Assembly (NCBI GenBank): GCA_022702125.1
Contig: JAKOND010000210.1
Location: 17,322-81,321 of the forward strand
Direction: 5' to 3'
Length of the DNA: 64,000 nucleotides
Origin: Burkholderiaceae bacterium
Lineage (GTDB): Bacteria > Pseudomonadota > Gammaproteobacteria > Burkholderiales > Burkholderiaceae_C
Shown: piece after piece, positions 2,354 through 44,742 of the stretch
How the letters are laid out: each line of letters opens with the position of its first letter
Position numbering within the stretch: the stretch's first letter is position 1
Program-made: the position numbers and the translations under genes
The notes under the pieces: model-generated
What the model saw: only the letters and a program-made list of their open reading frames with translations
Database searches by the model: none
What the model was told of the DNA's origin: nothing

Positions 2354-3076
2354 TCAGGGCATCGTCGGCAGCTCGTTCGGCCGCAGGTCGAACACCAGCA
2401 CCTCGGCACCCTCGCCCCCGGTGAGGCGCAGCGGCCCGGCATTGCGGATGCGGGCGCCGTCGCCGTCCGAGAGGCGCTCGCCGTTCACCTCCACGCTGCC
2501 GCGCGCCACATGCACATAGACGTGCCGGTCCGGGCCCACGGCCAGTTCGGCGGATTCATCGCCGTCGAACAGGCCGGCATAGACCCGCGCATCCTGGCGC
2601 ACGGCCAGGGCGCCGTCATCGCCTTCGGGCGAGATGATCTGGCGCAGGCGCCCGCGCTTGTCGGCCTCGGTGAAATGCACCTGCTGGTAGCGCGGCTGGG
2701 CGCCGCGCTGGTTGGGCACGATCCAGATCTGCAGGAAGTGCACGGGATCGGTGCCCGAGTGGTTGAACTCGCTGTGCTGCACGCCGCTGCCGGCGCTCAT
2801 CATCTGCACGTCGCCGGGGCGGATGACCGAGCCCGTGCCCATCGAGTCCTTGTGTTCCAGCGCGCCTTCGAGCACGTAGGAAAAGATCTCCATGTCGCGG
2901 TGGCCATGGGTGCCGAAGCCGTTGGACGGCGTCACGCGGTCGTCGTTGATGACCAGCAGGTCCGAAAAGCCTTGCTGGTTCGCGTCGCGGTAGTGGCCGA
3001 ACGAGAAGGTGTGGCGCGACTGCAGCCAGCCGTGGTTGGCGATGCCTCGTTGCTGGGCGCGGCGGATATCGAGCAT
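2354..3076 (-). CDS. Pirin family protein (bicupin)
   Basis: MLDIRRAQQRGIANHGWLQSRHTFSFGHYRD...HGHRDMEIFSYVLEG carries the pirin cupin His motifs. I prefer ATG 3076 over 3100 because AAGGGA lies about 9 nt upstream. The gene is divergent from a LysR gene. Confidence 0.9.
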   Translation of the reverse strand: MLDIRRAQQRGIANHGWLQSRHTFSFGHYRDANQQGFSDLLVINDDRVTPSNGFGTHGHRDMEIFSYVLEGALEHKDSMGTGSVIRPGDVQMMSAGSGVQHSEFNHSGTDPVHFLQIWIVPNQRGAQPRYQQVHFTEADKRGRLRQIISPEGDDGALAVRQDARVYAGLFDGDESAELAVGPDRHVYVHVARGSVEVNGERLSDGDGARIRNAGPLRLTGGEGAEVLVFDLRPNELPTMP

Positions 3077-3112
3077 GGTGTCTGTCCCTTCTTGCTTCAT
3101 CGATGGAATTCA

Positions 3113-3136
3113 CACTGAAAGAAAGCGCTTTCAGTG
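3113..3136. promoter_or_regulatory. Inverted repeat in the pirin/LysR divergent region; candidate LTTR binding site
   Basis: CACTGAAAG-aaagcg-CTTTCAGTG contains the perfect 12-bp palindrome GAAAGCGCTTTC. It fits the T-N11-A style of LysR-type boxes. Confidence 0.45.
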
Positions 3137-3196
3137 CTGCGATGGAAGAAGTATCGGCCGGCAACGCGCCCGTCAGGTTGAAAGGTGTGGGCCGCC

Positions 3197-3217
3197 ATCA
3201 TCGATAATTTCGATGAT
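3197..3217. promoter_or_regulatory. Second inverted repeat just upstream of the LysR start
   Basis: ATCATCGA-taatt-TCGATGAT has 8-bp perfect arms. It lies 22 nt upstream of ATG 3239. Confidence 0.4.
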
Positions 3218-3238
3218 TCACCACACCCCGGGAGCCGC

Positions 3239-4141
3239 ATGCTCAAACTCACGCTGGAAGCCATCGAACTGGTGGATGCCATCGCCCGCAGCGGCTCGTT
3301 CGCGGGCGCATCGGAACAGCTGCACAAGGTGCCCTCCACCATCTCCTACGCCGTGGGCAAGCTGGAGGAGCAACTGGGCTTCGCGCTGTTCACGCGCAAC
3401 GGCCCGCGCGTGGCGCTGACGCCCGCCGGGCAGGAACTGATCCGCGAAGGCCGGTGGCTGCTGGCCGCCGCGCACCAGCTCGAATCGCGCATGCGGCAGG
3501 TGGCGACCGGCTTCGAATCCGAAGTGCGGCTGATGCACGACTCGCTGATTCCCACCGAGGCCTTCAACCAGGACATCTGCGCCTTCGAAGACCTGCAGTG
3601 CGGCACCCGCCTGCGCATCGCCAGCGAGGCCATGACCGGCACCTGGGAAGCCCTGCGCGAAGGCCGTGCCGACCTCATCGTGGCCGCCGGCGAAGGCCCG
3701 GCCGGCGGCGGCTACAAGGCCGTGGCGGTGGGCAGCCTGGCCTTCGCCTTCTGCGTGACCGCCACCCACCCGCTGGCCCGGCTGCAGCGCCCGCTCACTC
3801 GCGCCGACCTGCTGGAGCACACGGCCGTGGTGGTGGGAGACGGCGCGCGCTCGCTCGCCGACCGCACGGTGGGCCTGCTCTCCGGCCAGCGCCGCATCAC
3901 GGTGCCGAACATGCAGGCCAAGATAGCCGCCCAGGCCGCCGGCCTGGGCCACGGCTTCGTACCCCGTGCCTGCGTGCGGGTGGAGCTGGAAACCGGCGTG
4001 CTGGTGGAACTGCCCGTGGAAGAGCCCCGCCCGGACGAAACCTTCTGGCTGGCCTGGCGGCCCGAGCACATGGGCGAGGCGCTCAAGTGGTGGAGCCAGC
4101 GGCTGAACCGGGCGCTGCTGCCGGGGATTCTTCCGTATTGA
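3239..4141 (+). CDS. LysR-family transcriptional regulator
   Basis: The N-terminal wHTH is MLKLTLEAIELVDAIARSGSFAGASEQLHKVPSTISYAVGKLEEQLGFALFTRNGPRVALTPAG. The length is 300 aa. It is divergent from the pirin gene, a classic LTTR arrangement. Confidence 0.9.
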   Translation: MLKLTLEAIELVDAIARSGSFAGASEQLHKVPSTISYAVGKLEEQLGFALFTRNGPRVALTPAGQELIREGRWLLAAAHQLESRMRQVATGFESEVRLMHDSLIPTEAFNQDICAFEDLQCGTRLRIASEAMTGTWEALREGRADLIVAAGEGPAGGGYKAVAVGSLAFAFCVTATHPLARLQRPLTRADLLEHTAVVVGDGARSLADRTVGLLSGQRRITVPNMQAKIAAQAAGLGHGFVPRACVRVELETGVLVELPVEEPRPDETFWLAWRPEHMGEALKWWSQRLNRALLPGILPY

Positions 4142-21458: not shown

Positions 21459-23462
21459 ATGGCCCAGCCCCCCCACGACGCCCCTACCGCAGCCGCCGCC
21501 TTCAAGAAGCGCTACCCCACGCTGGAGCAGAACGCCGTGCTCAACGCCACGGCGCGCACGGTGCTCATCAGCGCCCTGGCGGGCACGGGCAAGACCACCA
21601 CGCTGGCGATCAAGGCCGCCGATCTGGTGCAGACCCGGGGCGCGCGCCGCGTGCTGATGCTGGCCTATTCCGACGCGGGCCTCGCCGCCATCCACGACCG
21701 GCTGGCGCGCTTCATGCCCTCCGACGCGCGCGAAGTGCAGATCATGACGGTGGACCAGCTCTGCGCCGGCCTGCTGGAAGCGCAGGGCCTGCCCGTGCAG
21801 CGCCTGACCGAGCCCCTGGAGCGCAATCTGTTGATCCGCCAGGCCCATGCCGCGCTGCAGCAGCAGGGCGACGCGCCGCCCGAGGCGGCGGACTTCCTGG
21901 CGCGCGAACTCGACGTGCAGGCCTTCACCGACTTCGAGGCCCTGGCCAAGCAGCGCCTGCTGCAGCGCGACATCGCCCGCGAGGGCCTCAGCGCCGCCGC
22001 CTACTGCCGCGAGCAGGCGCTGGACTACGGCCTCTACCTGCTGCTGCGCCAGTACGAGCGCCTGCGCCGGGGCCCCGACGACGAGCCGCTCTTCTACGCC
22101 CCGGGCGACTGCACCTACGAGATCGCCCGGCAGCTCTGGGAGCTGGACTTCGGCGACGCCTACGCCCCGCTGCAGGGCCGCTACGACGCGGTGCTGTTCG
22201 ACGAGCTGCAGGATCTGGACGAGGCCGCCATGCTGGTGCTGCGCCACCTGGTGGCCGGCGGCAACGGCGTGTTCGTGGGCGCGGGCGACTTCAACCAGCA
22301 CATCCTGCCCGGCGCCTTCTCCGTCTTCGGCGACGGGCTGGAGCGCATCCGCCAGCAGCTGCCCGAGCCGCCCGAGGTGCTGACGCTCAACACCACCTAC
22401 CGCTTCGGCCCGGCCATCTGCGACGGGCTGAACCCGCTCTTCGGCGTGGACTTCGCCGCGCACTACGCCACCAAGCCGGCGCGCTTCGAGCGGCTTGCGT
22501 ACGAAAGCGACGAAGACTGCGCCCGGCAGCTGCTGGCCATCCACCAGGCCGTGCGGCGCGAGCCGCCCGCCGCGAACGGTGCCGCGCCCTGCCTGAACGT
22601 GGTGCTGCGCTCGCCCGAGGATTCGGTGCTGCTGGAATGGCGCTTCGCCCACGAAGGCGTGCACTACGCCTGCAAGGGCCTCAAGCGCTTCTACCAGCGC
22701 CGCGAGATCGCGCTGGTGCTGGCCCTCTTCTGGGCCCTGCCGGGCTGCGGCAGCCAGGTGCGGCTCACCCAGGGCATTCTCAGCAGCGCCATCGAAGGCC
22801 TGCTGCGCTACGTGCGCCGCGCCAGCCGGCCCGATGCCGACCGGCTGGCCAACGGCCTCTTCGACCTGCAGGCGCTGGCGCAGACCTCCGCCGCCGAGGT
22901 GGACACCCGCGCCGTGGCCGCCGAGCTGCTGGCCCAGCAGGAACGCATGCGCGGCTTCCTGCTGCGCGCCAGCTTCGACCCGAACGCGCCCGTGGCTTCG
23001 GCCGCCTGCGAGGCCTGGCTGGCCCTGCCGCCCGAGGCCTGCGCCGACGCCGGCCGGCTCTGCCGCCACCCGCTGCTGCACCGCTTCTTCGCGGAGGCGC
23101 CCATCAGCCCCGAAGAACTGCGCCAGTGCCTGGACAGCCTGCAGGCGCTCTCGCGCATCTGCGCGGGCCTGAGCGTGGATGAATTCCTCGGCCAGCTCGC
23201 GCTCATGGTGCAGTCCAGCATCCGCCAGCACCGCCAGAACGAAGCGCCCAGCCTGCAGCTGCTGACCGTGGAGCGCTGCAAGGGCCACGAATACGAGCAC
23301 GTCGCCGTGCCCCTGGTCGAGTGCGGGCGCTTTCCACGCGCCGCCGCCCCGCAGGAGGCCTACCGCGAACGCAACATGCTCTACGTGGCCCTCACCCGCT
23401 CCACCCGCCGCCTGTGGCTGCTGGAAGGCCGCGAGCGGCCGGTGAGCCCGGGGCCGGTGTGA
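21459..23462 (+). CDS. Divergent superfamily-1 (UvrD-like) DNA helicase
   Basis: Walker A is LAGTGKTT and motif II is FDELQD. TYRFG, C-terminal ERCKGHEYEHVAVPL and MLYVALTRSTRRLWL (motif VI) are also present. It lacks the canonical UvrD/Rep signatures (GSGKT, TFTNKAA). The length is 667 aa. Confidence 0.85.
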   Translation: MAQPPHDAPTAAAAFKKRYPTLEQNAVLNATARTVLISALAGTGKTTTLAIKAADLVQTRGARRVLMLAYSDAGLAAIHDRLARFMPSDAREVQIMTVDQLCAGLLEAQGLPVQRLTEPLERNLLIRQAHAALQQQGDAPPEAADFLARELDVQAFTDFEALAKQRLLQRDIAREGLSAAAYCREQALDYGLYLLLRQYERLRRGPDDEPLFYAPGDCTYEIARQLWELDFGDAYAPLQGRYDAVLFDELQDLDEAAMLVLRHLVAGGNGVFVGAGDFNQHILPGAFSVFGDGLERIRQQLPEPPEVLTLNTTYRFGPAICDGLNPLFGVDFAAHYATKPARFERLAYESDEDCARQLLAIHQAVRREPPAANGAAPCLNVVLRSPEDSVLLEWRFAHEGVHYACKGLKRFYQRREIALVLALFWALPGCGSQVRLTQGILSSAIEGLLRYVRRASRPDADRLANGLFDLQALAQTSAAEVDTRAVAAELLAQQERMRGFLLRASFDPNAPVASAACEAWLALPPEACADAGRLCRHPLLHRFFAEAPISPEELRQCLDSLQALSRICAGLSVDEFLGQLALMVQSSIRQHRQNEAPSLQLLTVERCKGHEYEHVAVPLVECGRFPRAAAPQEAYRERNMLYVALTRSTRRLWLLEGRERPVSPGPV

Positions 23463-34520: not shown

Positions 34521-34925
34521 ATGCGCAAGACATTCCCGCTCGACATCGAAGGCCGCCACCGCGACCGCGTGGTCGAAGCCGCCAAGCACGACATCCGCAA
34601 GTACATCCAGCGCGAGCGCCGCAAGCCGCTGCCCGACGGCGCCGATTTCTGGGACTTCGACTGCCGCTTCGGCCCCGACCGCGACACGGCCCAGCCGATC
34701 CATTTCGCGGCCATCACGCCGAGCATCGACGAGGCCGTGCGCTCCGGCGCCGCCGCCTTTCACATCGAGATCCTGGCCCGCGCCGCCCAGCGCAGCGCGC
34801 GGCCCGAAGGCGCGGGCCGCCCGCAGGACGGCGATGCCGGCACCGGCGACGACGCCACCGTCGGCGAAGGCACCGACAACGACAGCGACAACGGCGGCCC
34901 CGGCGGCCCGGCCCGGCATGGCTGA
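34521..34925 (+). CDS. Small basic protein of unknown function (DUF6172-like) with an acidic Asp/Gly tail
   Basis: MRKTFPLDIEGRHRDRVVEAAKHDIRKYIQRERRKPLPDGADFWDFDCRFG matches my recollection of the proteobacterial DUF6172 family. GC3 is high. Confidence 0.65.
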   Translation: MRKTFPLDIEGRHRDRVVEAAKHDIRKYIQRERRKPLPDGADFWDFDCRFGPDRDTAQPIHFAAITPSIDEAVRSGAAAFHIEILARAAQRSARPEGAGRPQDGDAGTGDDATVGEGTDNDSDNGGPGGPARHG

Positions 34926-35358
34926 TTCCGACACCCCCTCCCTGCTGGCCGACATCGCCGTCGTCCACGAGTACAAGGGCCGCAAGACGCCGGCGCCGCA
35001 ATCCTTCGTGCTGCACCCGTTCTGCATCCGCCAGGGCGAGCACGAGGGCACCTTCGAGATCCTGCACAGCCGCCGCGGCGTCGAGGACCCGAAGCACGCG
35101 GGCCACGTCACGCGGGCGCAGCTGGCCGAGCTGTACGCGCGCGGCCTGATGGAACGACTCGGCATCCGCCTGCGCCTGCGGCCAGCCGAAGACCTCTACC
35201 CCGACACCCTGCCGGCCAAGAAGGTGCCGCGCAGCTGCATCGCGGCGGATTCGGACTTCGCCCGCGAAGTCGCCGCCGTGGACACCGCGGCGCCCCTGCC
35301 CGCGCCGCTGCGGGCGGTGCTCGAAGGCATGGGGCTGGAGCCGGCCCCGCCGCGCTGA
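34918..35358 (+). CDS. Hypothetical protein (146 aa), His/Cys-rich N-half
   Basis: ATG 34918 overlaps the upstream stop (ATGGCTGA). GC3 is high and the amino-acid composition is ordinary (VVHEYKG...HPFCIRQGEHEGTFEILHSRRGVEDPKHAGH). I recognise no family. Confidence 0.55.
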   Translation: MADSDTPSLLADIAVVHEYKGRKTPAPQSFVLHPFCIRQGEHEGTFEILHSRRGVEDPKHAGHVTRAQLAELYARGLMERLGIRLRLRPAEDLYPDTLPAKKVPRSCIAADSDFAREVAAVDTAAPLPAPLRAVLEGMGLEPAPPR

Positions 35359-35450
35359 GACGGTTCCCGGGGCATCCGCCCGGCCGGCCGGATGGCCCGC
35401 GCTGGCGGCTGGAGGATTCCGGGCCGTCCCGGGGAGCGGCGCCGGAATGC

Positions 35451-35471
35451 GCGCGCCGGACATCGGCGCGC
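35451..35471 (+). terminator. GC hairpin after the 34521-35358 pair
   Basis: GCGCGCCG-gacat-CGGCGCGC is an 8-bp stem. There is no clear T-run. Confidence 0.4.
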
Positions 35472-35479
35472 GGCATTGA

Positions 35480-35499
35480 TACTGTATAAATACACAGTC
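35480..35499 (+). promoter_or_regulatory. LexA SOS box (CTGT-N8-ACAG type)
   Basis: TACTGTATAAATACACAGTC matches 17/20 positions of TACTGTATATATATACAGTA. It sits 20 nt upstream of ATG 35520, with TTGATA immediately 5'. Confidence 0.8.
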
Positions 35500-35519
35500 A
35501 TCAACCCCGGGAGCCCGCC

Positions 35520-35813
35520 ATGGCCTACGCCGTCACCCTGTACGACTTTCCCCATCTCGAGAACGCCGACCGCGAGAAGGCGCAGAAGCGCTACCGCGAC
35601 GCCTTGGAGCGCCACTACGGCGACCCGGAGCGGGTGGCCGAGGCCTACCGCACCTGGAACACCGTCGCCGAGAACGACGGCGGCGAGACCTCCGGGGCGG
35701 ACCTCCTCGAAGCGACCAAATTCCAGAAGGCGCTGGAGCGCGCGCGCGAGGCCGGCTTCCGGGGCCTGGGCGAACCGCAGGAGGCCTACTTCGAGATCCG
35801 GCTGGCGCGCTGA
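35520..35813 (+). CDS. Orphan 97-aa acidic protein, predicted SOS-regulated
   Basis: GGGAG lies 6 nt upstream of the ATG. GC3 is high. The sequence is MAYAVTLYDFPHLENADREKAQKRYRDALERHYGDPERVAEAYRTW.... I recognise no family. Confidence 0.65.
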   Translation: MAYAVTLYDFPHLENADREKAQKRYRDALERHYGDPERVAEAYRTWNTVAENDGGETSGADLLEATKFQKALERAREAGFRGLGEPQEAYFEIRLAR

Positions 35814-35846
35814 CCGCGCCCGGGCCGCCACCCCGGCCGCGCCCGG

Positions 35847-35866
35847 CCGGACGGGCGCCCGTCCGG
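35847..35866. terminator. Bidirectional GC hairpin between the SOS ORF and phoX
   Basis: CCGGACGGG-cg-CCCGTCCGG has 9-nt perfect arms. Confidence 0.45.
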
Positions 35867-35885: not shown

Positions 35886-38117
35886 TCAGACGCCGATCTT
35901 GCCGCCGTCGTCCTTGGTGATGACGATGGTCGCCGAGCGCGGCCGGGCGCTGCCGCCGTCGGGCCAGTGGCTGCCGAAGGACGCCGGGTTGGCGAAGTCG
36001 GGCGCGGTGTCCTCGCCGGGATGCTGGATGTTGACGAACAGCGCGCGGCCGTCGCCCGACTCGGCGATGCCGGTGATCTCGCACTCCCTCGGCCCGACCA
36101 GGAAGCGGCGCAGGCTGGTGCCCGGCGCGGCGCCGACCACCGTGGACTGGGTGCGGGTGGTGCCGCCCGAGACGTTGGTGACGGTGCGCGCGCCGCCATC
36201 GCCCACCTGGCCCGGCAACGCGGCCAGCATCATGCAGTTGGTCACGTCGGTGTAGGCGCCGTCGTCGGTCTGCAGCCACAGCAGGCCGGGCGTGGCCTGG
36301 CTGAACCACATGCCGTCGGGGCTGGAGAAGTCGTTGTCGGCGGTGAGGTTCGAGAGGTTGACGTCGGCGCTCGCCGTGGCGCGGGCGCCGAACAGGTAGA
36401 TGTCCCAGCGGAAGGTGGTGGCGGCCGGGTCGCGGCCGGTGTCGGCCAGGCGCACCACGTGGCCGTTGGGGTTGCCCAGCTGCGCCGTCTGCGACGTGCC
36501 CTTCGGGTCGTTGTAGAAGCGCGGGTTGGCGGCGTCGGTCCGGTCGATCGGGCGCGAAGCGGCGTTGGTGTTGGTCAGCGTCAGGTACATGTCGCCGTTC
36601 TTCGGGTTCACGGCGGTCCACTCGGGGCGGTCCATCTTGGTCGCGTCGGCGGCGTCGGCGGCCAGGCGGGCGTGGATCAGCACGTCGGCCGCGTCGGCGA
36701 ACGGGTAGACGCCGCTGGACGAGGTGATGCCGTTGACGCCGAGCCGGAGCTCCAGCCAGGCGCCGGTGCCGTCGGCGTTGAACTTCGCGACGTAGAGCCG
36801 GCCGCTGTCCAGGTACTTGTCGCCCGCGGCCAGGCCGCCGGCGGCGTCGGCCGGGTTCCAGGGCTGGGTCGAGACGAACTTGTAGGCGTACTCGTTGCGC
36901 GAGTCGTCGCCCATGTACCAGACCAGCGGCTGGCCGGCGACCACCGGGCCCAGGCAGGCGCCCTCGTGGCCCATGCGGCCCAGGGCGGTGCGCTTGCGCG
37001 GGGTGGAATCGGGGTTGAAGGGATCGATCTCGACCACCCAGCCGTAGGTGTTGGGGCCGTTGCGGTAGTCGGCGGCGGCGCTGGCGCCGGTGGCTTCGGC
37101 GTTCCAGCGGCCGTAGAGGCCGTCGGACGTGTCGGGCGAGACCGTGGCCCACAGCTCGCGGCCGGTGCCGGCGACGCCGTAGCGGGCGAAGGCGGTCAGT
37201 TCCTTGGCGCTGCGGCGCGGGTTGTCGGTGGCGGCGATGCGGCGGAAGTAGCCGGCCCAGTTCTCCTCGCAGGTCAGGTAGGTGCCCCAGGGCGTGGTGC
37301 CGTTGGCGCAGTTGTTGACGGTGCCGCGGGTGCGGCGGCCGTCGGTCGCGTACTTGGTGACCAGCGCCGCCGAGCCGGCGGCCGGGCCGGACAGCAGCAT
37401 CGGCGTGAGGGTGTGGACGCGGCGGTTGAAGCGCGAGTCGCGGGCGTAGCTCCAGCGGCCGTTGCCGCTGCCGGTGCGCGCCACTTCCAGCACGCTGACG
37501 CCGTGCAGGTAGAACTCGCGCAGCACCTCGTCGGCCACGGTGCGGCGCGCGGCGTTGCCGCTGCCGGAGACGGTCTGGCCGGCGGGGTGCAGGAAGGCCG
37601 GGGTGATCGCCTCGTGGTTCATGGCCAGCAGGCCGCGCGCGGTGGCGGCGGCGTTCCAGGCGCCGCTGTCGGACAGGCCGAAGAAGCTCATGCCGTCGTG
37701 GTGGTCGCCGGCGCGGCGGTCGTAGGTGGCGGCGGCGTCGGTGCCGTCGTTGCGGTAGTCGGGCACGCCGGCGGCGATCGGGTCGCCCAGGCGGTAGAGC
37801 ACGCTGGCGGTGTAGCCGGCGGGCAGCACCAGCGCATCGGCGCGGCTCTTGGCGACGGCGTTGAAGCCGAGCTGCGCCGGCGCGACGGGCGCCGCGGGAT
37901 CGCCGTCGCCGCCGCCGCCGCAGGCCGACAGGCCCACGCTGCCCAGCAGCGCGGCGCCGGCGGTGCCGAGGCCGCCGCGCAGCCAGCTGCGGCGGCTCAG
38001 GCGCGCGGCGACCAGGGTTTCGAGGGACGGGTTGTCGGTGGTGTTGTAGCCGATGTCGTCGGGATCGATGGCGTGGGACGGCGCGGCGCCGACGAGGGCG
38101 GAGGAACGGGAATGCAT
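35886..38117 (-). CDS. phoX: PhoX-family (DUF839) alkaline phosphatase, Tat-exported lipoprotein
   Basis: SRRSWLRGGLG is a twin-Arg motif, followed by the LSAC lipobox. NHEAITP, NCANGTTPWGTYLTCEEN, GWVVEIDP, MDRPEWTAV and FVNIQHPGE are PhoX beta-propeller motifs. Confidence 0.9.
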   Translation of the reverse strand: MHSRSSALVGAAPSHAIDPDDIGYNTTDNPSLETLVAARLSRRSWLRGGLGTAGAALLGSVGLSACGGGGDGDPAAPVAPAQLGFNAVAKSRADALVLPAGYTASVLYRLGDPIAAGVPDYRNDGTDAAATYDRRAGDHHDGMSFFGLSDSGAWNAAATARGLLAMNHEAITPAFLHPAGQTVSGSGNAARRTVADEVLREFYLHGVSVLEVARTGSGNGRWSYARDSRFNRRVHTLTPMLLSGPAAGSAALVTKYATDGRRTRGTVNNCANGTTPWGTYLTCEENWAGYFRRIAATDNPRRSAKELTAFARYGVAGTGRELWATVSPDTSDGLYGRWNAEATGASAAADYRNGPNTYGWVVEIDPFNPDSTPRKRTALGRMGHEGACLGPVVAGQPLVWYMGDDSRNEYAYKFVSTQPWNPADAAGGLAAGDKYLDSGRLYVAKFNADGTGAWLELRLGVNGITSSSGVYPFADAADVLIHARLAADAADATKMDRPEWTAVNPKNGDMYLTLTNTNAASRPIDRTDAANPRFYNDPKGTSQTAQLGNPNGHVVRLADTGRDPAATTFRWDIYLFGARATASADVNLSNLTADNDFSSPDGMWFSQATPGLLWLQTDDGAYTDVTNCMMLAALPGQVGDGGARTVTNVSGGTTRTQSTVVGAAPGTSLRRFLVGPRECEITGIAESGDGRALFVNIQHPGEDTAPDFANPASFGSHWPDGGSARPRSATIVITKDDGGKIGV

Positions 38118-38357: not shown

Positions 38358-40289
38358 TCAGGCCGTCAGGCGGGGCTGCACCGGGCTGGCGGTGACGTAG
38401 CCCACGGCCGCGCCGAAGCGGTCCTTGAAGTTGGCGCGCACCAGCGGGTCGAGCGTGGCCTTGACCTTGTCGTGCAGCGGGGTCTCCCAGTCGCCGGGAT
38501 GCTGGAAGTTGCTCATCAGGTAGGTCCAGCCGTTGACCTCGTCCACCGCCTGCAGGCCGGTGGATTCGGCGCCCGACGGGGTGGACAGGATGCGGGTCAG
38601 CGCCTTGGTGTCGACGTTGTACGCCCACAGGAAGTTGTTGACGTGCATGCCGCTGTCCTCGCCGATGAAGAGCGTGCGCATCTTCTCGGAGAACTTGATG
38701 TTGTCCGGGTTGCCGATCTTGTCGGGGTTGGCCAGGTTGCCCAGCGCGTCGGCGGCGGCCAGGTCTTCGCCGATCAGCGCGGCGGGCGGCTCCATGTGGA
38801 CCGACACCCAGTCGCTGTTGATGGCGTTGCCCGCGCTGTCCTTCTGGCCGCCGGTCAGGGTGTGGGCGTAGACGGCGCCGGCCTTCGGGCCCTGCACCTT
38901 GATGCCGCCCGAGCCGTCGAGCATCGAGGTCTGCACATAGGACATGGCCGAGTAGGCGATCTTGTCCTTGGCGTTGACGGTGGTGCCTTCCATCTTGGTG
39001 AAGCCCATGCTGCCGCCGACGTAGGCGGCGTAGCGGTGGGTTTCCAGGAAGGCGGCGGCCTTCTCCATGCCCGGCTTGATCCGGATCCAGTTGAACTTGC
39101 CCGAGAACGGGATCCTGGTGTAGCTGGCGTCGCCCGGGTCGGAGGTCTTGACGTCCATGATGTCGGCGGCGGTCAGGGTGTTGGCCAGCGCCTCGATCTC
39201 GGCGCTGGTGGCGCTGCCGAGCTTGATCCAGGAGATGTCGCCCGCGCCCGGGCCGGTGCCGGAGGTCTGCTTCCACTTGCCCACGTAGAGCGAGCCGGAG
39301 GACAGGTCCGCCTCGCGATCGGCCACGAACATGAACAGGCCGCCGTTGGTCGCGTCGTCGCCCATCAGCGCGGTGCGCCGGTCGGGCATGACCTGCACCA
39401 GCTCGTGCGAGATGCGGCCCATGCAGTAGTGCTTCTTGATCGAGCCGGTGCCGTCGGGGTTGACGGTGATCTCGGGCAGGTGGCCGTAGTGGTAGGGGTT
39501 GGCCTTGGCCGCGTCGCCGAACAGGTTCTTGCTGTAGGCCTTGAACTGGCTGTTGGTGGCGATGGCGGCGGCGTCGGGCTCGTATTCCTCGCTCGACAGG
39601 TGGGTGTTCCAGGGCGACAGGCTGGCGCCGCAGGTGATCCACAGGCCGTGCACGCCCGAGGTGTCGACGTTGTGGTACTTGACCAGGCTGAGCTTGCCGG
39701 TGTCCTGGTCCTGGTCGAGCGTGAGCACCGCGATCGGCGAGGGCAGCAGGCCGTAGGCGGACGCGCCCGCCTGGTCGCGGGTGGTGTATTCGAACTGCAC
39801 CACCGCGAACACCGCCTTGCCCTTGATGCCGGGCACCGAGGCGTTGGACAGCGTCAGCAGCGAGGTGCCGTCCGGGCTGTCGGAGAAGAACTGGCGCTCC
39901 TTGCCCGCGACCGAGCGGTCGAGGATCGGCTTGTTGTTGATGTCCACGTAGCCGCCCGCGAGGATGGTGCCGCCCTTGCCGTCGGCGACCATGTCGCCGG
40001 TCACGAAGAACGGCTGGTAGGCCAGCGCGTAGGTCTGGCTGCTGCCGTCGGCGAAGGCGACCTTCATGCTCGACCCGACGGTGGTGGTCGCCATCGCGGC
40101 CGGGTTGGCCAGCGTGGGCGCGGCCATGCCGGAGAAGGCGGTGGAGACGTAGGCCGCGGTGCTGTCGCTGCCGCCGCCGCAGGCGGGCAGCAGGCTGCAG
40201 GAAGCCAGGCCGCCGAGCGGCAGCATCGGAATGCCGGCCAGGAATTTGAGCGCGCCGCGGCGCGACGTCGTGGAGACGGGAGCAGACAT
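38358..40289 (-). CDS. Second, divergent PhoX/DUF839-like phosphatase, Tat signal + lipobox
   Basis: TSRRGALKFLAG and LASC are present. Further motifs are LWITCGASLSPWNTHLSSEEYEPD, GRISHE, NPDNIKFSEKMRTLFIGEDSG and LMSNFQHPGD. Confidence 0.85.
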   Translation of the reverse strand: MSAPVSTTSRRGALKFLAGIPMLPLGGLASCSLLPACGGGSDSTAAYVSTAFSGMAAPTLANPAAMATTTVGSSMKVAFADGSSQTYALAYQPFFVTGDMVADGKGGTILAGGYVDINNKPILDRSVAGKERQFFSDSPDGTSLLTLSNASVPGIKGKAVFAVVQFEYTTRDQAGASAYGLLPSPIAVLTLDQDQDTGKLSLVKYHNVDTSGVHGLWITCGASLSPWNTHLSSEEYEPDAAAIATNSQFKAYSKNLFGDAAKANPYHYGHLPEITVNPDGTGSIKKHYCMGRISHELVQVMPDRRTALMGDDATNGGLFMFVADREADLSSGSLYVGKWKQTSGTGPGAGDISWIKLGSATSAEIEALANTLTAADIMDVKTSDPGDASYTRIPFSGKFNWIRIKPGMEKAAAFLETHRYAAYVGGSMGFTKMEGTTVNAKDKIAYSAMSYVQTSMLDGSGGIKVQGPKAGAVYAHTLTGGQKDSAGNAINSDWVSVHMEPPAALIGEDLAAADALGNLANPDKIGNPDNIKFSEKMRTLFIGEDSGMHVNNFLWAYNVDTKALTRILSTPSGAESTGLQAVDEVNGWTYLMSNFQHPGDWETPLHDKVKATLDPLVRANFKDRFGAAVGYVTASPVQPRLTA

Positions 40290-43674: not shown

Positions 43675-44742
43675 CTACCGTCGCCGGTCGTCCGCCGCCA
43701 TCCGCGCGGCCCAGTCGGCGAGCGGCAGCGGCGCGCCGGTGCCGGGCATGCGCCGCAGCAGCAGCCGCAGTTCGGGCATGCCGCCGCGCTCCGATGGCCA
43801 GCGCGTCGGCGGCACCGGCTGCCAGCGCCCGGCGGCGTCGCGCTCGGCCATGCGGAAGCGGAAGGTGTAGTGGTTCGCGCCCAGTCCCATGCGCAGGTCG
43901 GTCGCCACCAGCCGGCCGCCCGCGTCGTCGTAACGCAGCCATCCGCCGGAGAACCAGCGCAACCGCGCATGCTCGGGCGACGCCGACAGCCCCGCGTCGG
44001 CCAGCGCGCTGCCCAGCGGCTGGACGATCCGCTCGGGCGCGCCGCGGTCGAACACGCCGGCGACCGCCTCGACGTACCGGTCGCCGTCGATCTTCGCCAC
44101 CACCCGCCAGAGCAGGATGTTGAGCGGCATCGGCGACGAGAACACCGCCCCGGGCCGCAGCCCGTCGGCCTCCAGCGCGGCCCGCACCCGGTGCTCGGCC
44201 ACCGACTTCGCGCCCAGCGACAGGCCCAGGTAGAGCGCGCACCAGCCCAACGCCCCGCCGCAGGCCCGCCAGGATCGACCCGGGCGGCGCCGGCCCCGCA
44301 GCGCGGCCCCCAGCACCGCCAGCAGCAGCGGCACGGTGAAGAACGGATCGACGATGAAGATGCTGGACCAGGCGGCGGGCACCGGCTGCCACGGCCACCA
44401 GAGCTGGGTGCCGTAGCTGGTGAAGGCATCGAGCAGCGGATGGGTGATCAGCACCAGCCACAGCGCGAGGAAGAGCCGTCCCGCGCCGTAGTCCGGCGAC
44501 GGCCGCCAGCGGCGCACCGCCGCGGTCAGCAGCCCGGCCACGGCGGTCAGCACCGGCAGCGAATGCGAGAAGCCCCGGTGGTGCGTCATCGCCGACACCG
44601 GGTCGGCGTAGCGGATCGCCACGTCCAGGTCCGGCAGCGTGGCCAGCACCGCGCCGTAGAGCAGCGCCCTGCGGCCCTGCGCACGGCCCAGCAGCGCGGC
44701 CTGGATGCCGGCGCCGAGCACGGCCTGGGTCAACGAATCCAT
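43675..44742 (-). CDS. Membrane-bound metal-dependent hydrolase (YdjM/YbcI, DUF457 family) with C-terminal extension
   Basis: MDSLTQAVLGAGIQAALLG...LPDLDV...HRGFSHSL is the family signature. Confidence 0.8.
   Translation of the reverse strand: MDSLTQAVLGAGIQAALLGRAQGRRALLYGAVLATLPDLDVAIRYADPVSAMTHHRGFSHSLPVLTAVAGLLTAAVRRWRPSPDYGAGRLFLALWLVLITHPLLDAFTSYGTQLWWPWQPVPAAWSSIFIVDPFFTVPLLLAVLGAALRGRRRPGRSWRACGGALGWCALYLGLSLGAKSVAEHRVRAALEADGLRPGAVFSSPMPLNILLWRVVAKIDGDRYVEAVAGVFDRGAPERIVQPLGSALADAGLSASPEHARLRWFSGGWLRYDDAGGRLVATDLRMGLGANHYTFRFRMAERDAAGRWQPVPPTRWPSERGGMPELRLLLRRMPGTGAPLPLADWAARMAADDRRR

Follow-up and report, generated by a model that had tools for sequence, protein, structure and literature searches.

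A predicted LexA operator and the unnamed family of small acidic proteins that it accompanies in Comamonadaceae chromosomes, plasmids and phages

Small proteins under LexA control are best known from enterics, where DinI, the DinI-like genes of Gifsy-type prophages and ImpC of the impCAB plasmid operons occupy three niches, namely those of a stand-alone chromosomal SOS gene, of a prophage gene and of a plasmid gene located just 5' of umuD/umuC-type genes. Tum of coliphage 186 and Ant of the Gifsy/Fels phages are LexA-controlled antirepressors, and SulA, YneA, SidA, ChiZ, DivS and SosA are SOS division inhibitors that are notoriously non-homologous. The role of SosA in division inhibition is documented (bioRxiv 10.1101/364299). 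Outside enterics, SOS regulons are known mostly by their core genes, and lineage-specific small effectors, such as checkpoint proteins or modulators of RecA and polymerases, are largely undiscovered. In Betaproteobacteria, two hypothetical LexA-regulated genes, hypA and hypB, have been predicted, hypA being reported in Burkholderiaceae and not listed for Variovorax (Sanchez-Alberola et al., 2012, PMC3323433). Here, we analyse a gene encoding a 97-amino-acid (aa) protein, at positions 35520-35813 of a 64,000-nt stretch of DNA from a Burkholderiaceae bacterium (GenBank assembly GCA_022702125.1, contig JAKOND010000210.1). This whole stretch is hereafter called the window. The 161-nt intergenic region that precedes the gene contains a predicted LexA operator. 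With a probability that we put at about 85%, sequence comparisons indicate that the gene is a LexA-repressed, DNA-damage-inducible monocistron; that its relatives form a new SOS-regulon gene family, encoding an undescribed protein, is a well-supported reading of the same comparisons.

The elements of the unit are the following.

35476-35481, + strand: TTGATA, a -35-like hexamer which overlaps the first two bases of the box and whose role is doubtful
35480-35499, no strand assigned: predicted LexA (SOS) operator TACTGTATAAATACACAGTC, of the CTGT-N8-ACAG type, recognised by its position weight matrix (PWM) score and by its equivalents 5' of homologues
35485-35490, + strand: TATAAA, the only -10-like hexamer of the region, within the operator, with a presumed core-promoter role
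35509-35513, + strand: Shine-Dalgarno motif GGGAG, 6 nt before the ATG, replaced by AGGAG at the same place in relatives
35520-35813, + strand: coding sequence of a 97-aa acidic protein of an unnamed conserved family, recognised by third-codon-position GC content (GC3), homologues, the ratio of non-synonymous to synonymous substitution rates (dN/dS) and a structural model

The CTGT-N8-ACAG palindrome is given as the LexA motif of most Betaproteobacteria in PMC6595937, citing Sanchez-Alberola 2015 (site tables in PMC3323433), and it is found 5' of lexA, recA and imuA in Variovorax and other Burkholderiales (PMC3323433). TACTGTATAAATACACAGTC shares 17 of its 20 bases with the E. coli consensus TACTGTATATATATACAGTA, as pointed out in an earlier note on this DNA, and is the sole CTGT-N8-ACAG instance in the 64-kb window. 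On an E. coli-type PWM, assembled from E. coli SOS boxes, it scores 21-23 bits and the runner-up site of the window 8 bits. From the exact score distribution, sites of such score are expected by chance 1.2e-5 times per 64 kb at 72.5% GC, and ~1e-3 times per 5-Mb genome. A second PWM was built from the 48 LexA sites that Sanchez-Alberola et al. (2012, PMC3323433, Additional file 4) published for Burkholderia, Ralstonia, Cupriavidus and Variovorax. On this betaproteobacterial matrix, TACTGTATAAATACACAGTC reaches 25.2 bits, for a median of 26.2 among the reference sites, and the next site of the window scores -1.3; the lexA and recA sites of Variovorax score 11.7-17.6 bits. Moreover, the 22-mer of the window is one base off the published imuA site of Burkholderia glumae.

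The placement of the box described in the earlier note also agrees with the sequence. The intergenic region extends from the stop codon of a 146-aa open reading frame (ORF), at 35358, to ATG 35520. The box contains 30% GC, compared with 82% for the rest of the region, the exceptional patch spanning 35476-35505. ATG 35520 begins exactly 20 nt past the box end, GGGAG stands exactly 6 nt upstream of this ATG, and the Shine-Dalgarno motif is found about 9-10 nt past the box end.

The association of box and gene is kept in distant relatives. A genome scan using one genome per species, with a profile derived from a curated sub-alignment, returned 80 loci, nearly all from Comamonadaceae (Acidovorax, Paracidovorax, Variovorax, Comamonas, Alicycliphilus, Ramlibacter, Polaromonas), together with Verticiella; several genomes have two copies of the family gene. 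Counting as a box any site that scores 14 bits or more in the 200 nt upstream, 44 of these 80 loci have one, for a chance level of ~1.5e-4 per locus and ~0.01 in total, and boxed members are found in 15 of the 21 protein clusters defined at 70% identity. Once start codons are reassigned, most loci have 17-25 nt between box and ATG, compared with 20 nt in the window. When the loci are aligned on the box, a conserved layout emerges, made of the box, 5-12 nt, AGGAG, 6-8 nt and the ATG. The spacing is retained across homologues of 28-47% identity located in unrelated contexts. In a Comamonas homologue (31% identity with the window protein), the ATG is preceded by two boxes, at distances of 44 and 9 nt. 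Five metagenomic homologues (28-34% identity) have one strong box each, 2-21 nt before the ATG, and in each of these loci (2-8 kb) no site other than the box reaches 12 bits. The closest relative, which is 52% identical and comes from a metagenome-assembled genome of Xylophilus ampelinus, has the box 5' of a 161-aa ORF and the family gene 10 nt later, suggesting that LexA control is kept by way of a two-gene operon; a copy on a Variovorax chromid has a similar arrangement. Three Acidovorax loci that were scored as boxless correspond to contig ends or to a half-degraded box.

The position of the box also suggests how transcription would be controlled. Relatives have TATATT or TATTTA at the box positions matching TATAAA. 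Since the sole -10-like hexamer is located inside the box and the Shine-Dalgarno motif 5-12 nt past it, the transcription start is predicted to lie within the box or at its 3' end. The earlier note had proposed TTGATA as a -35 element. This hexamer does abut and overlap the box, but its role in a promoter is doubtful, because a spacer of 16-18 nt would lead to a CATCAA-like -10 and to a start at or after the Shine-Dalgarno motif, and because the TTG is not conserved, relatives having GAAA, GAAGAA or GGCAAA at this place. Neither TTGATA combined with a downstream -10 nor TATAAA combined with an upstream -35 makes a good sigma-70 pair. In the mechanism that we propose, a single operator of the high-affinity type would cover both the -10-like hexamer and the probable transcription start. 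Bound LexA would block RNA polymerase, and repression would be relieved by RecA-stimulated self-cleavage of LexA after DNA damage. The ORF at 35520-35813 is the only gene that its promoter can serve, since the neighbouring phoX gene, downstream, is convergent, in keeping with the monocistron proposed in the earlier note.

Several lines of evidence concern the gene itself. In its frame, GC content amounts to 0.9-1.0 at third positions (GC3 near 0.94) and to ~0.4 at second positions, a pattern that designates it as a genuine coding sequence for this genome. In the alignment, the window protein and its relatives begin at the same place, and ATG 35520 is thereby confirmed as the start codon. The ORF had been regarded as an orphan, and a word-indexed homologue search returned only the protein itself. 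This status was overturned by an exhaustive HMMER search of 1.84 billion cluster representatives, where 86 proteins were found at E <= 1e-3, 11 of them at E <= 1e-10. Almost all these matches are 94-110 aa long and aligned end to end, and the family comprises at least 86 clusters at the 50% identity level. Another 45 relatives came from a profile search. Purifying selection, on which the earlier note had made its case depend, is strong. Homologous coding sequences, compared in 993 pairs, have a median dN/dS of 0.13, and the value is below 0.5 in 96% of the pairs. The family can be recognised by the signature Y-T-V-x-L-x-D-x-P...LP...R-x-x-A-E-x-R-F...L-E-R-x-L-G-G...A-W...E-S...W-x-x-A-x-x-x-A-x-x-A-G-F-x-x-L-G-E...A-[YH]-F-E-V-R-L.

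This family is undescribed in Pfam (2025), NCBIfam (2026), PHROGs, PADLOC, the Protein Data Bank (PDB) and the literature searched. The window protein has no significant match in Pfam, NCBIfam, PHROGs, PADLOC or PDB sequences. Among 59 family members, no Pfam match is recurrent, singleton noise apart, and the family profile has no match in PDB sequences. Weak matches of the window protein to HEPN/Csm6 (Pfam, E 0.025), CARF_HEPN/ZorC (PADLOC, E ~0.01) and ParB (PHROG, E 0.08) were considered as noise, because they are seen with the window protein only and are absent from its relatives. In JGI data, identical or near-identical copies are named either "general stress protein YciG" or "predicted DsbA family dithiol-disulfide isomerase". 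These names contradict each other, have no model support and are probably annotation artefacts.

A confident AlphaFold2 model was obtained from a 41-sequence alignment, with a predicted local distance difference test score (pLDDT) of 93.7 and a predicted template modelling score (pTM) of 0.84. It comprises strand beta1 (residues 3-8), helices alpha1 (15-33), alpha2 (36-51) and alpha3 (59-79), and strand beta2 (90-95). According to this model, the product would be a soluble acidic protein of 97 residues, folded as a three-helix bundle clasped by a two-stranded beta ribbon, in which the N- and C-terminal strands are paired (beta-alpha3-beta). The acidic and mainly helical character foreseen in the earlier note is thereby recovered. 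The isoelectric point (pI) of the window protein is 5.2 and its net charge -4, for family medians of 4.55 and -7; its grand average of hydropathy (GRAVY) is -0.95, and it has no hydrophobic segment. The helices are amphipathic, and the last one is rich in Ala and Trp. Conserved residues belong mostly to the core (Leu, Ala, Trp, Phe, Gly), and a few are charged (R18, E22, R24, E92, R94). No catalytic-looking motif is evident in the family. These features would fit a binding or adaptor protein. Foldseek found no neighbour in the PDB, the best match having an E-value of 0.8 and a template modelling (TM) score of ~0.4; matches to MazG-like proteins and to Aqs1 were dismissed at this TM of ~0.4. 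In BFVD, the search returned only two uncharacterised Caudovirales proteins (E 5e-3, TM 0.72/0.80; E 2e-2, TM 0.56/0.62).

How does this family compare with the small SOS proteins already described? The nearest likeness is to DinI and ImpC, which are also small (81-100 aa), acidic and soluble, with a single LexA box, and which share with the family the three niches mentioned above. A weak resemblance to DinI is also seen in an N-terminal unit made of a beta-strand followed by LP and a helix. The DinI topology is beta-alpha-beta-beta-alpha (PDB 1GHH), whereas the order predicted for the family is beta-alpha-alpha-alpha-beta. DinI is absent from the top 50 Foldseek PDB matches of the family model, and the last helix of the family is Ala/Trp-rich, not acidic. 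The Pfam DinI model (PF06183) has no match in the 59 members even at E <= 10. No homology to DinI is detectable: besides this difference in topology, an hmmsearch comparison scored 2.9 bits, and an hhalign comparison with the DinI alignment was non-significant (probability 3%, P = 0.015) and covered the N-terminal strand-helix unit only. YebG, SulA, PsiB, SbmC and UmuD (S24) resemble the family in being small and LexA-regulated; the window protein and its 59 relatives match none of the corresponding Pfam or NCBIfam models and no PDB sequence. The statement of the earlier note that the protein does not resemble SulA, DinI, YebG or UmuD is thus borne out by Pfam, NCBIfam and PDB comparisons.

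Like the family, hypA and hypB are short hypothetical ORFs of Burkholderiales known only by their conserved LexA boxes, and hypA shares with the Comamonas and prophage family members the presence of two boxes near the start codon. The distributions differ, hypA belonging to Burkholderiaceae and the present family mainly to Comamonadaceae. The hypA gene Bphy_6740 was located on pBPHY01 of Paraburkholderia phymatum by means of its two published boxes (locus L105, 1021-1358; ORF 1073-1358, ~95 aa). Identity of the family with hypA was rejected, the family hidden Markov model scoring the Bphy_6740 product at -1.2 bits. The two Bphy_6740 boxes are placed back to back (GATACTGTATATATTCACAGTACTGTGTTTAAATACAGTATC), just 5' of the ~95-aa ORF. 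Bphy_6740 is a second uncharacterised small SOS protein of Burkholderiales, unrelated to the present family. Finally, the phage antirepressors Tum and Ant also consist of a self-contained unit of LexA box and small ORF, located close to the immunity region of temperate phages. Unlike them, the family has no ANT/KilAC or Tum-like match in Pfam or PHROG, the prophages that carry it already encode a self-cleaving S24 repressor and a separate ANT, and most of its copies are chromosomal and unlinked to a prophage.

Clustering of the neighbours over 90 loci shows that the family gene is found in many unrelated contexts, including GGDEF, PP2C, AraC, DUF72 with an endonuclease, MetQ, TctC and GST genes. 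Downstream ORFs (73 aa, ~95-aa membrane protein, ~125 aa, 162 aa) and upstream operon partners (157-161 aa) vary by clade. Some neighbours nevertheless recur. SRAP/YedK genes adjoin the family gene in four independent contexts (including L015 86-574, L023 2310-3077, L093 and L097), and SRAP is also preceded by a LexA motif in related loci. Genes with an ATP-dependent ligase domain (~210 aa) do so in two contexts (L016 2369-3016, L020 1921-2544). These recurrent neighbours are in keeping with the SOS neighbourhoods containing SRAP and ligase genes that Aravind et al. (2013, PMC3765255) have described. On the Polaromonas plasmid pH6NP1, the order is trfA, family gene, LexA box, umuD and Y-family polymerase; the family gene overlaps the trfA stop codon, and the box belongs to the umuD/polymerase genes. 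At one locus, the family gene adjoins an integrase gene.

Viral sequences add a further niche. The family gene is carried by 19 viral contigs of IMG/VR, 12 of which have a box within ~80 nt upstream, this box being double in 10 of the 12. In ten Comamonas-type contigs, the gene is located directly after a gene for a 240-aa CI-like repressor with an S24 peptidase domain, and two LexA boxes, 34-35 nt apart, separate repressor and family gene (L110 4905-4958; also L111-L118 and L123). Cro-like, ANT/KilAC, DnaC-like, RdgC and RecT genes in the same prophage regions identify a lambdoid immunity/early region. Since the two boxes directly follow the S24 repressor gene and head an operon, host LexA may directly gate the early-left operon of these phages, made of the family gene and then RdgC/RecT. 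A family member is also present in the cultured temperate Acidovorax phage Aval (OP131589.1; lifestyle in PMC11619371), where gp48c, at the genome end (L128 110-442), is annotated as a hypothetical protein; the LexA box GACTGTATATTCATACAGCA is found 16 nt before its ATG. The module made of box and gene would move horizontally among Comamonadaceae chromosomes, prophages, phage Aval and integrase-bearing elements. In short, the regulatory logic is standard; the protein family is new, its fold has no solved relative and its distribution is unusually portable.

With these data at hand, other explanations can be weighed, starting with regulation. The palindrome could be something else than a LexA operator, for instance a binding site for a different regulator, such as a phage-type repressor or a paralogue of LexA, or an AT-rich promoter element that is there by chance, and the gene would then not be damage-inducible. 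Such a reading could invoke the loose CTGT-N8-ACAG pattern, which is not rare by itself, at least one instance being found in 43 of 100 shuffles, and the location of lexA outside the 64-kb window. The specificity of the host LexA is taken from Comamonadaceae relatives and from motif data for Variovorax and Acidovorax (PMC3323433, PMC6595937). Other observations also weigh against our reading. A consensus scan of the region detected no canonical sigma-70 -35/-10 pair. A Variovorax clade of 27 members, found at a fixed chromosomal site after a mannose-1-phosphate guanylyltransferase gene, lacks the box. No box of their own is found for one other Variovorax copy, one Xylophilus copy, a truncated Polaromonas copy and the trfA-coupled copy of pH6NP1. 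As such boxless copies exist, the protein can be useful without direct LexA control. Against a different regulator or a fortuitous element stand the rarity of the full 20-22-mer, ~1e-5 per window by chance, and its score close to the median of published LexA sites. The same motif occurs 5' of umuD and SRAP in related loci and 5' of lexA, recA and imuA in Variovorax and other Burkholderiales, and it is kept at the same spacing before divergent homologues in unrelated contexts. A palindrome that scores like known sites, lies 5' of the gene in the promoter region and is conserved upstream of homologues has the features by which LexA regulon members are recognised. We consider LexA binding and damage induction as very likely, and a palindrome unrelated to LexA as extremely improbable.

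The function of the protein is a more tentative matter, and the roles put forward in the earlier note (RecA/LexA modulator, division inhibitor or replication-fork factor) are guesses. It plausibly acts by binding a partner of the SOS pathway rather than by catalysis. Our leading guess, which does not amount to a family assignment and to which we would give much less than even odds, is that of a tuner of RecA filaments, of LexA/UmuD cleavage or of translesion synthesis, in the manner of DinI and ImpC. This guess is drawn from the three shared niches and from the small acidic character of the protein. The family might then be an unrecognised type of SOS effector, whose fold has no counterpart in the PDB and which would be the Comamonadaceae counterpart of DinI/ImpC and would form a portable SOS cassette with its own operator, used by phages to tune their own induction; this broader picture is likewise tentative. 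The non-significant alignment with DinI, a fold without PDB neighbour and a secondary-structure order unlike that of DinI speak against the guess of a DinI-like tuner, as does the finding that no partner gene is conserved among the neighbours of the 90 loci. Alternatively, the protein could be an accessory of mobile elements, whose target would be the element itself or a competitor. Like Tum or Gifsy Ant, it could counteract a repressor or modulate induction under LexA control, or it could be an anti-defence, superinfection or establishment factor, the chromosomal copies being domesticated or stranded. Its position in Comamonas-type prophages, as the first gene after the S24 CI-like repressor and two boxes and ahead of RdgC/RecT, would be explained in this way. 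So would the boxed copy in temperate phage Aval (PMC11619371), the copy on an integrase-bearing element, those adjoining trfA on Polaromonas plasmids, the multiple copies of several genomes, the two uncharacterised Caudovirales proteins as sole structural neighbours (TM 0.72/0.80 and E 5e-3 for the better one) and the unrelated neighbourhoods, as expected for a moron-like cassette. However, the carrier prophages are already equipped with an S24 repressor that cleaves itself and with a separate ANT/KilAC antirepressor, so that an extra one is not needed. In the window and at most of the 80 genome loci, the neighbours are ordinary chromosomal genes with no element nearby, the 27-member Variovorax clade combines a fixed chromosomal site with strong constraint and no box, and no PADLOC or PHROG match is found. 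We hold a mobile-element accessory to be rather unlikely. A cytoplasmic, SulA-like inhibitor of FtsZ or of the divisome, acting as an SOS division checkpoint in a lineage with no evident canonical SulA, is hardly probable. LexA control and small size would suit it, the known SOS division inhibitors are non-homologous between lineages, and the Pfam scans and the AlphaFold2 model are compatible with a protein-binding role. Nevertheless, known inhibitors other than SulA are small membrane proteins, and the family protein has no hydrophobic segment (GRAVY -0.95). Several copies per genome, with carriage by phages and plasmids, would be unusual for a checkpoint protein, and neither the window protein nor its relatives match SulA in Pfam.

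Small SOS effectors bear on mutagenesis, on the induction of prophages and on how antibiotic resistance evolves. The family provides a concrete candidate, strongly constrained in sequence, for which neither a name nor a Pfam model nor a structural neighbour exists, and with an operator retained across deep divergence and across replicon types. If the protein were a modulator of RecA or LexA, the DinI niche would have been filled independently in Betaproteobacteria. Cultured hosts (Acidovorax, Comamonas, Variovorax) exist, the cultured temperate phage Aval is a ready experimental system, and the boxed (Acidovorax, Comamonas) and unboxed (Variovorax) clades offer a natural contrast for the study of regulon turnover.

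Two hairpins flank the unit.

35450-35458 / 35464-35472, no strand assigned: upstream GC hairpin, with perfect 9-nt arms CGCGCGCCG / CGGCGCGCG and a 5-nt loop, without a T-run
35847-35866, no strand assigned: downstream GC hairpin CCGGACGGGCGCCCGTCCGG, between the convergent 97-aa gene and phoX, without a T-run

The earlier note had described a unit insulated by these hairpins. Both stems exist, but insulation by terminators is not borne out. The stability of the upstream hairpin corresponds to z = -1.9 with respect to dinucleotide-matched shuffles, 12 of 200 of which fold equally well, and that of the downstream hairpin to z = -0.6 and -0.9 on the two strands. Neither has the T-run of a Rho-independent terminator, and a consensus scan detected no terminator-like site at either of them. 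The upstream hairpin may mark the end of the upstream DUF6172/146-aa transcription unit, and the downstream one is a possible bidirectional terminator.

The surroundings of the unit in the window, whose GC content is 72.5%, are ordinary chromosomal genes (MacAB-OMP efflux, DUF6172, two PhoX, RNR, GGDEF/EAL, YhdP, porin); Rfam and tRNA scans found nothing in it. The convergent gene downstream of the 97-aa gene encodes a PhoX phosphatase (35886-38117, - strand, E 1e-130). It is the first of two tandem genes for PhoX-family alkaline phosphatases, the other one being divergent (38358-40289, - strand, E 9e-17). Upstream, the DUF6172 gene (34521-34925, + strand) overlaps by 8 nt the 146-aa ORF (34918-35358, + strand), which has a strong GC3 signal and no match in Pfam, PHROGs or PADLOC. 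Metagenomic copies of this species also have the DUF6172/146-aa pair 5' of the 97-aa gene.

Other genes of the window, or of related loci, recall the SOS response. In E. coli, ydjM is LexA-regulated. The window encodes an inner-membrane protein of the YdjM family (43678-44742, - strand, Pfam E 1.7e-34) with no LexA-like site near its start, which may represent a further case of regulon turnover. A UvrD/REP-type helicase gene (21459-23462, + strand) has no LexA-like site upstream. In the Variovorax core clade, as exemplified by Variovorax paradoxus (locus L065, family gene 3001-3285), a LexA-like site is found ~650 nt downstream of the family gene, at 3938-3957, and the situation is similar in ~10 other Variovorax loci. 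This downstream site precedes an ORF with HxTxH motifs, whose product looks like a 2H phosphoesterase.

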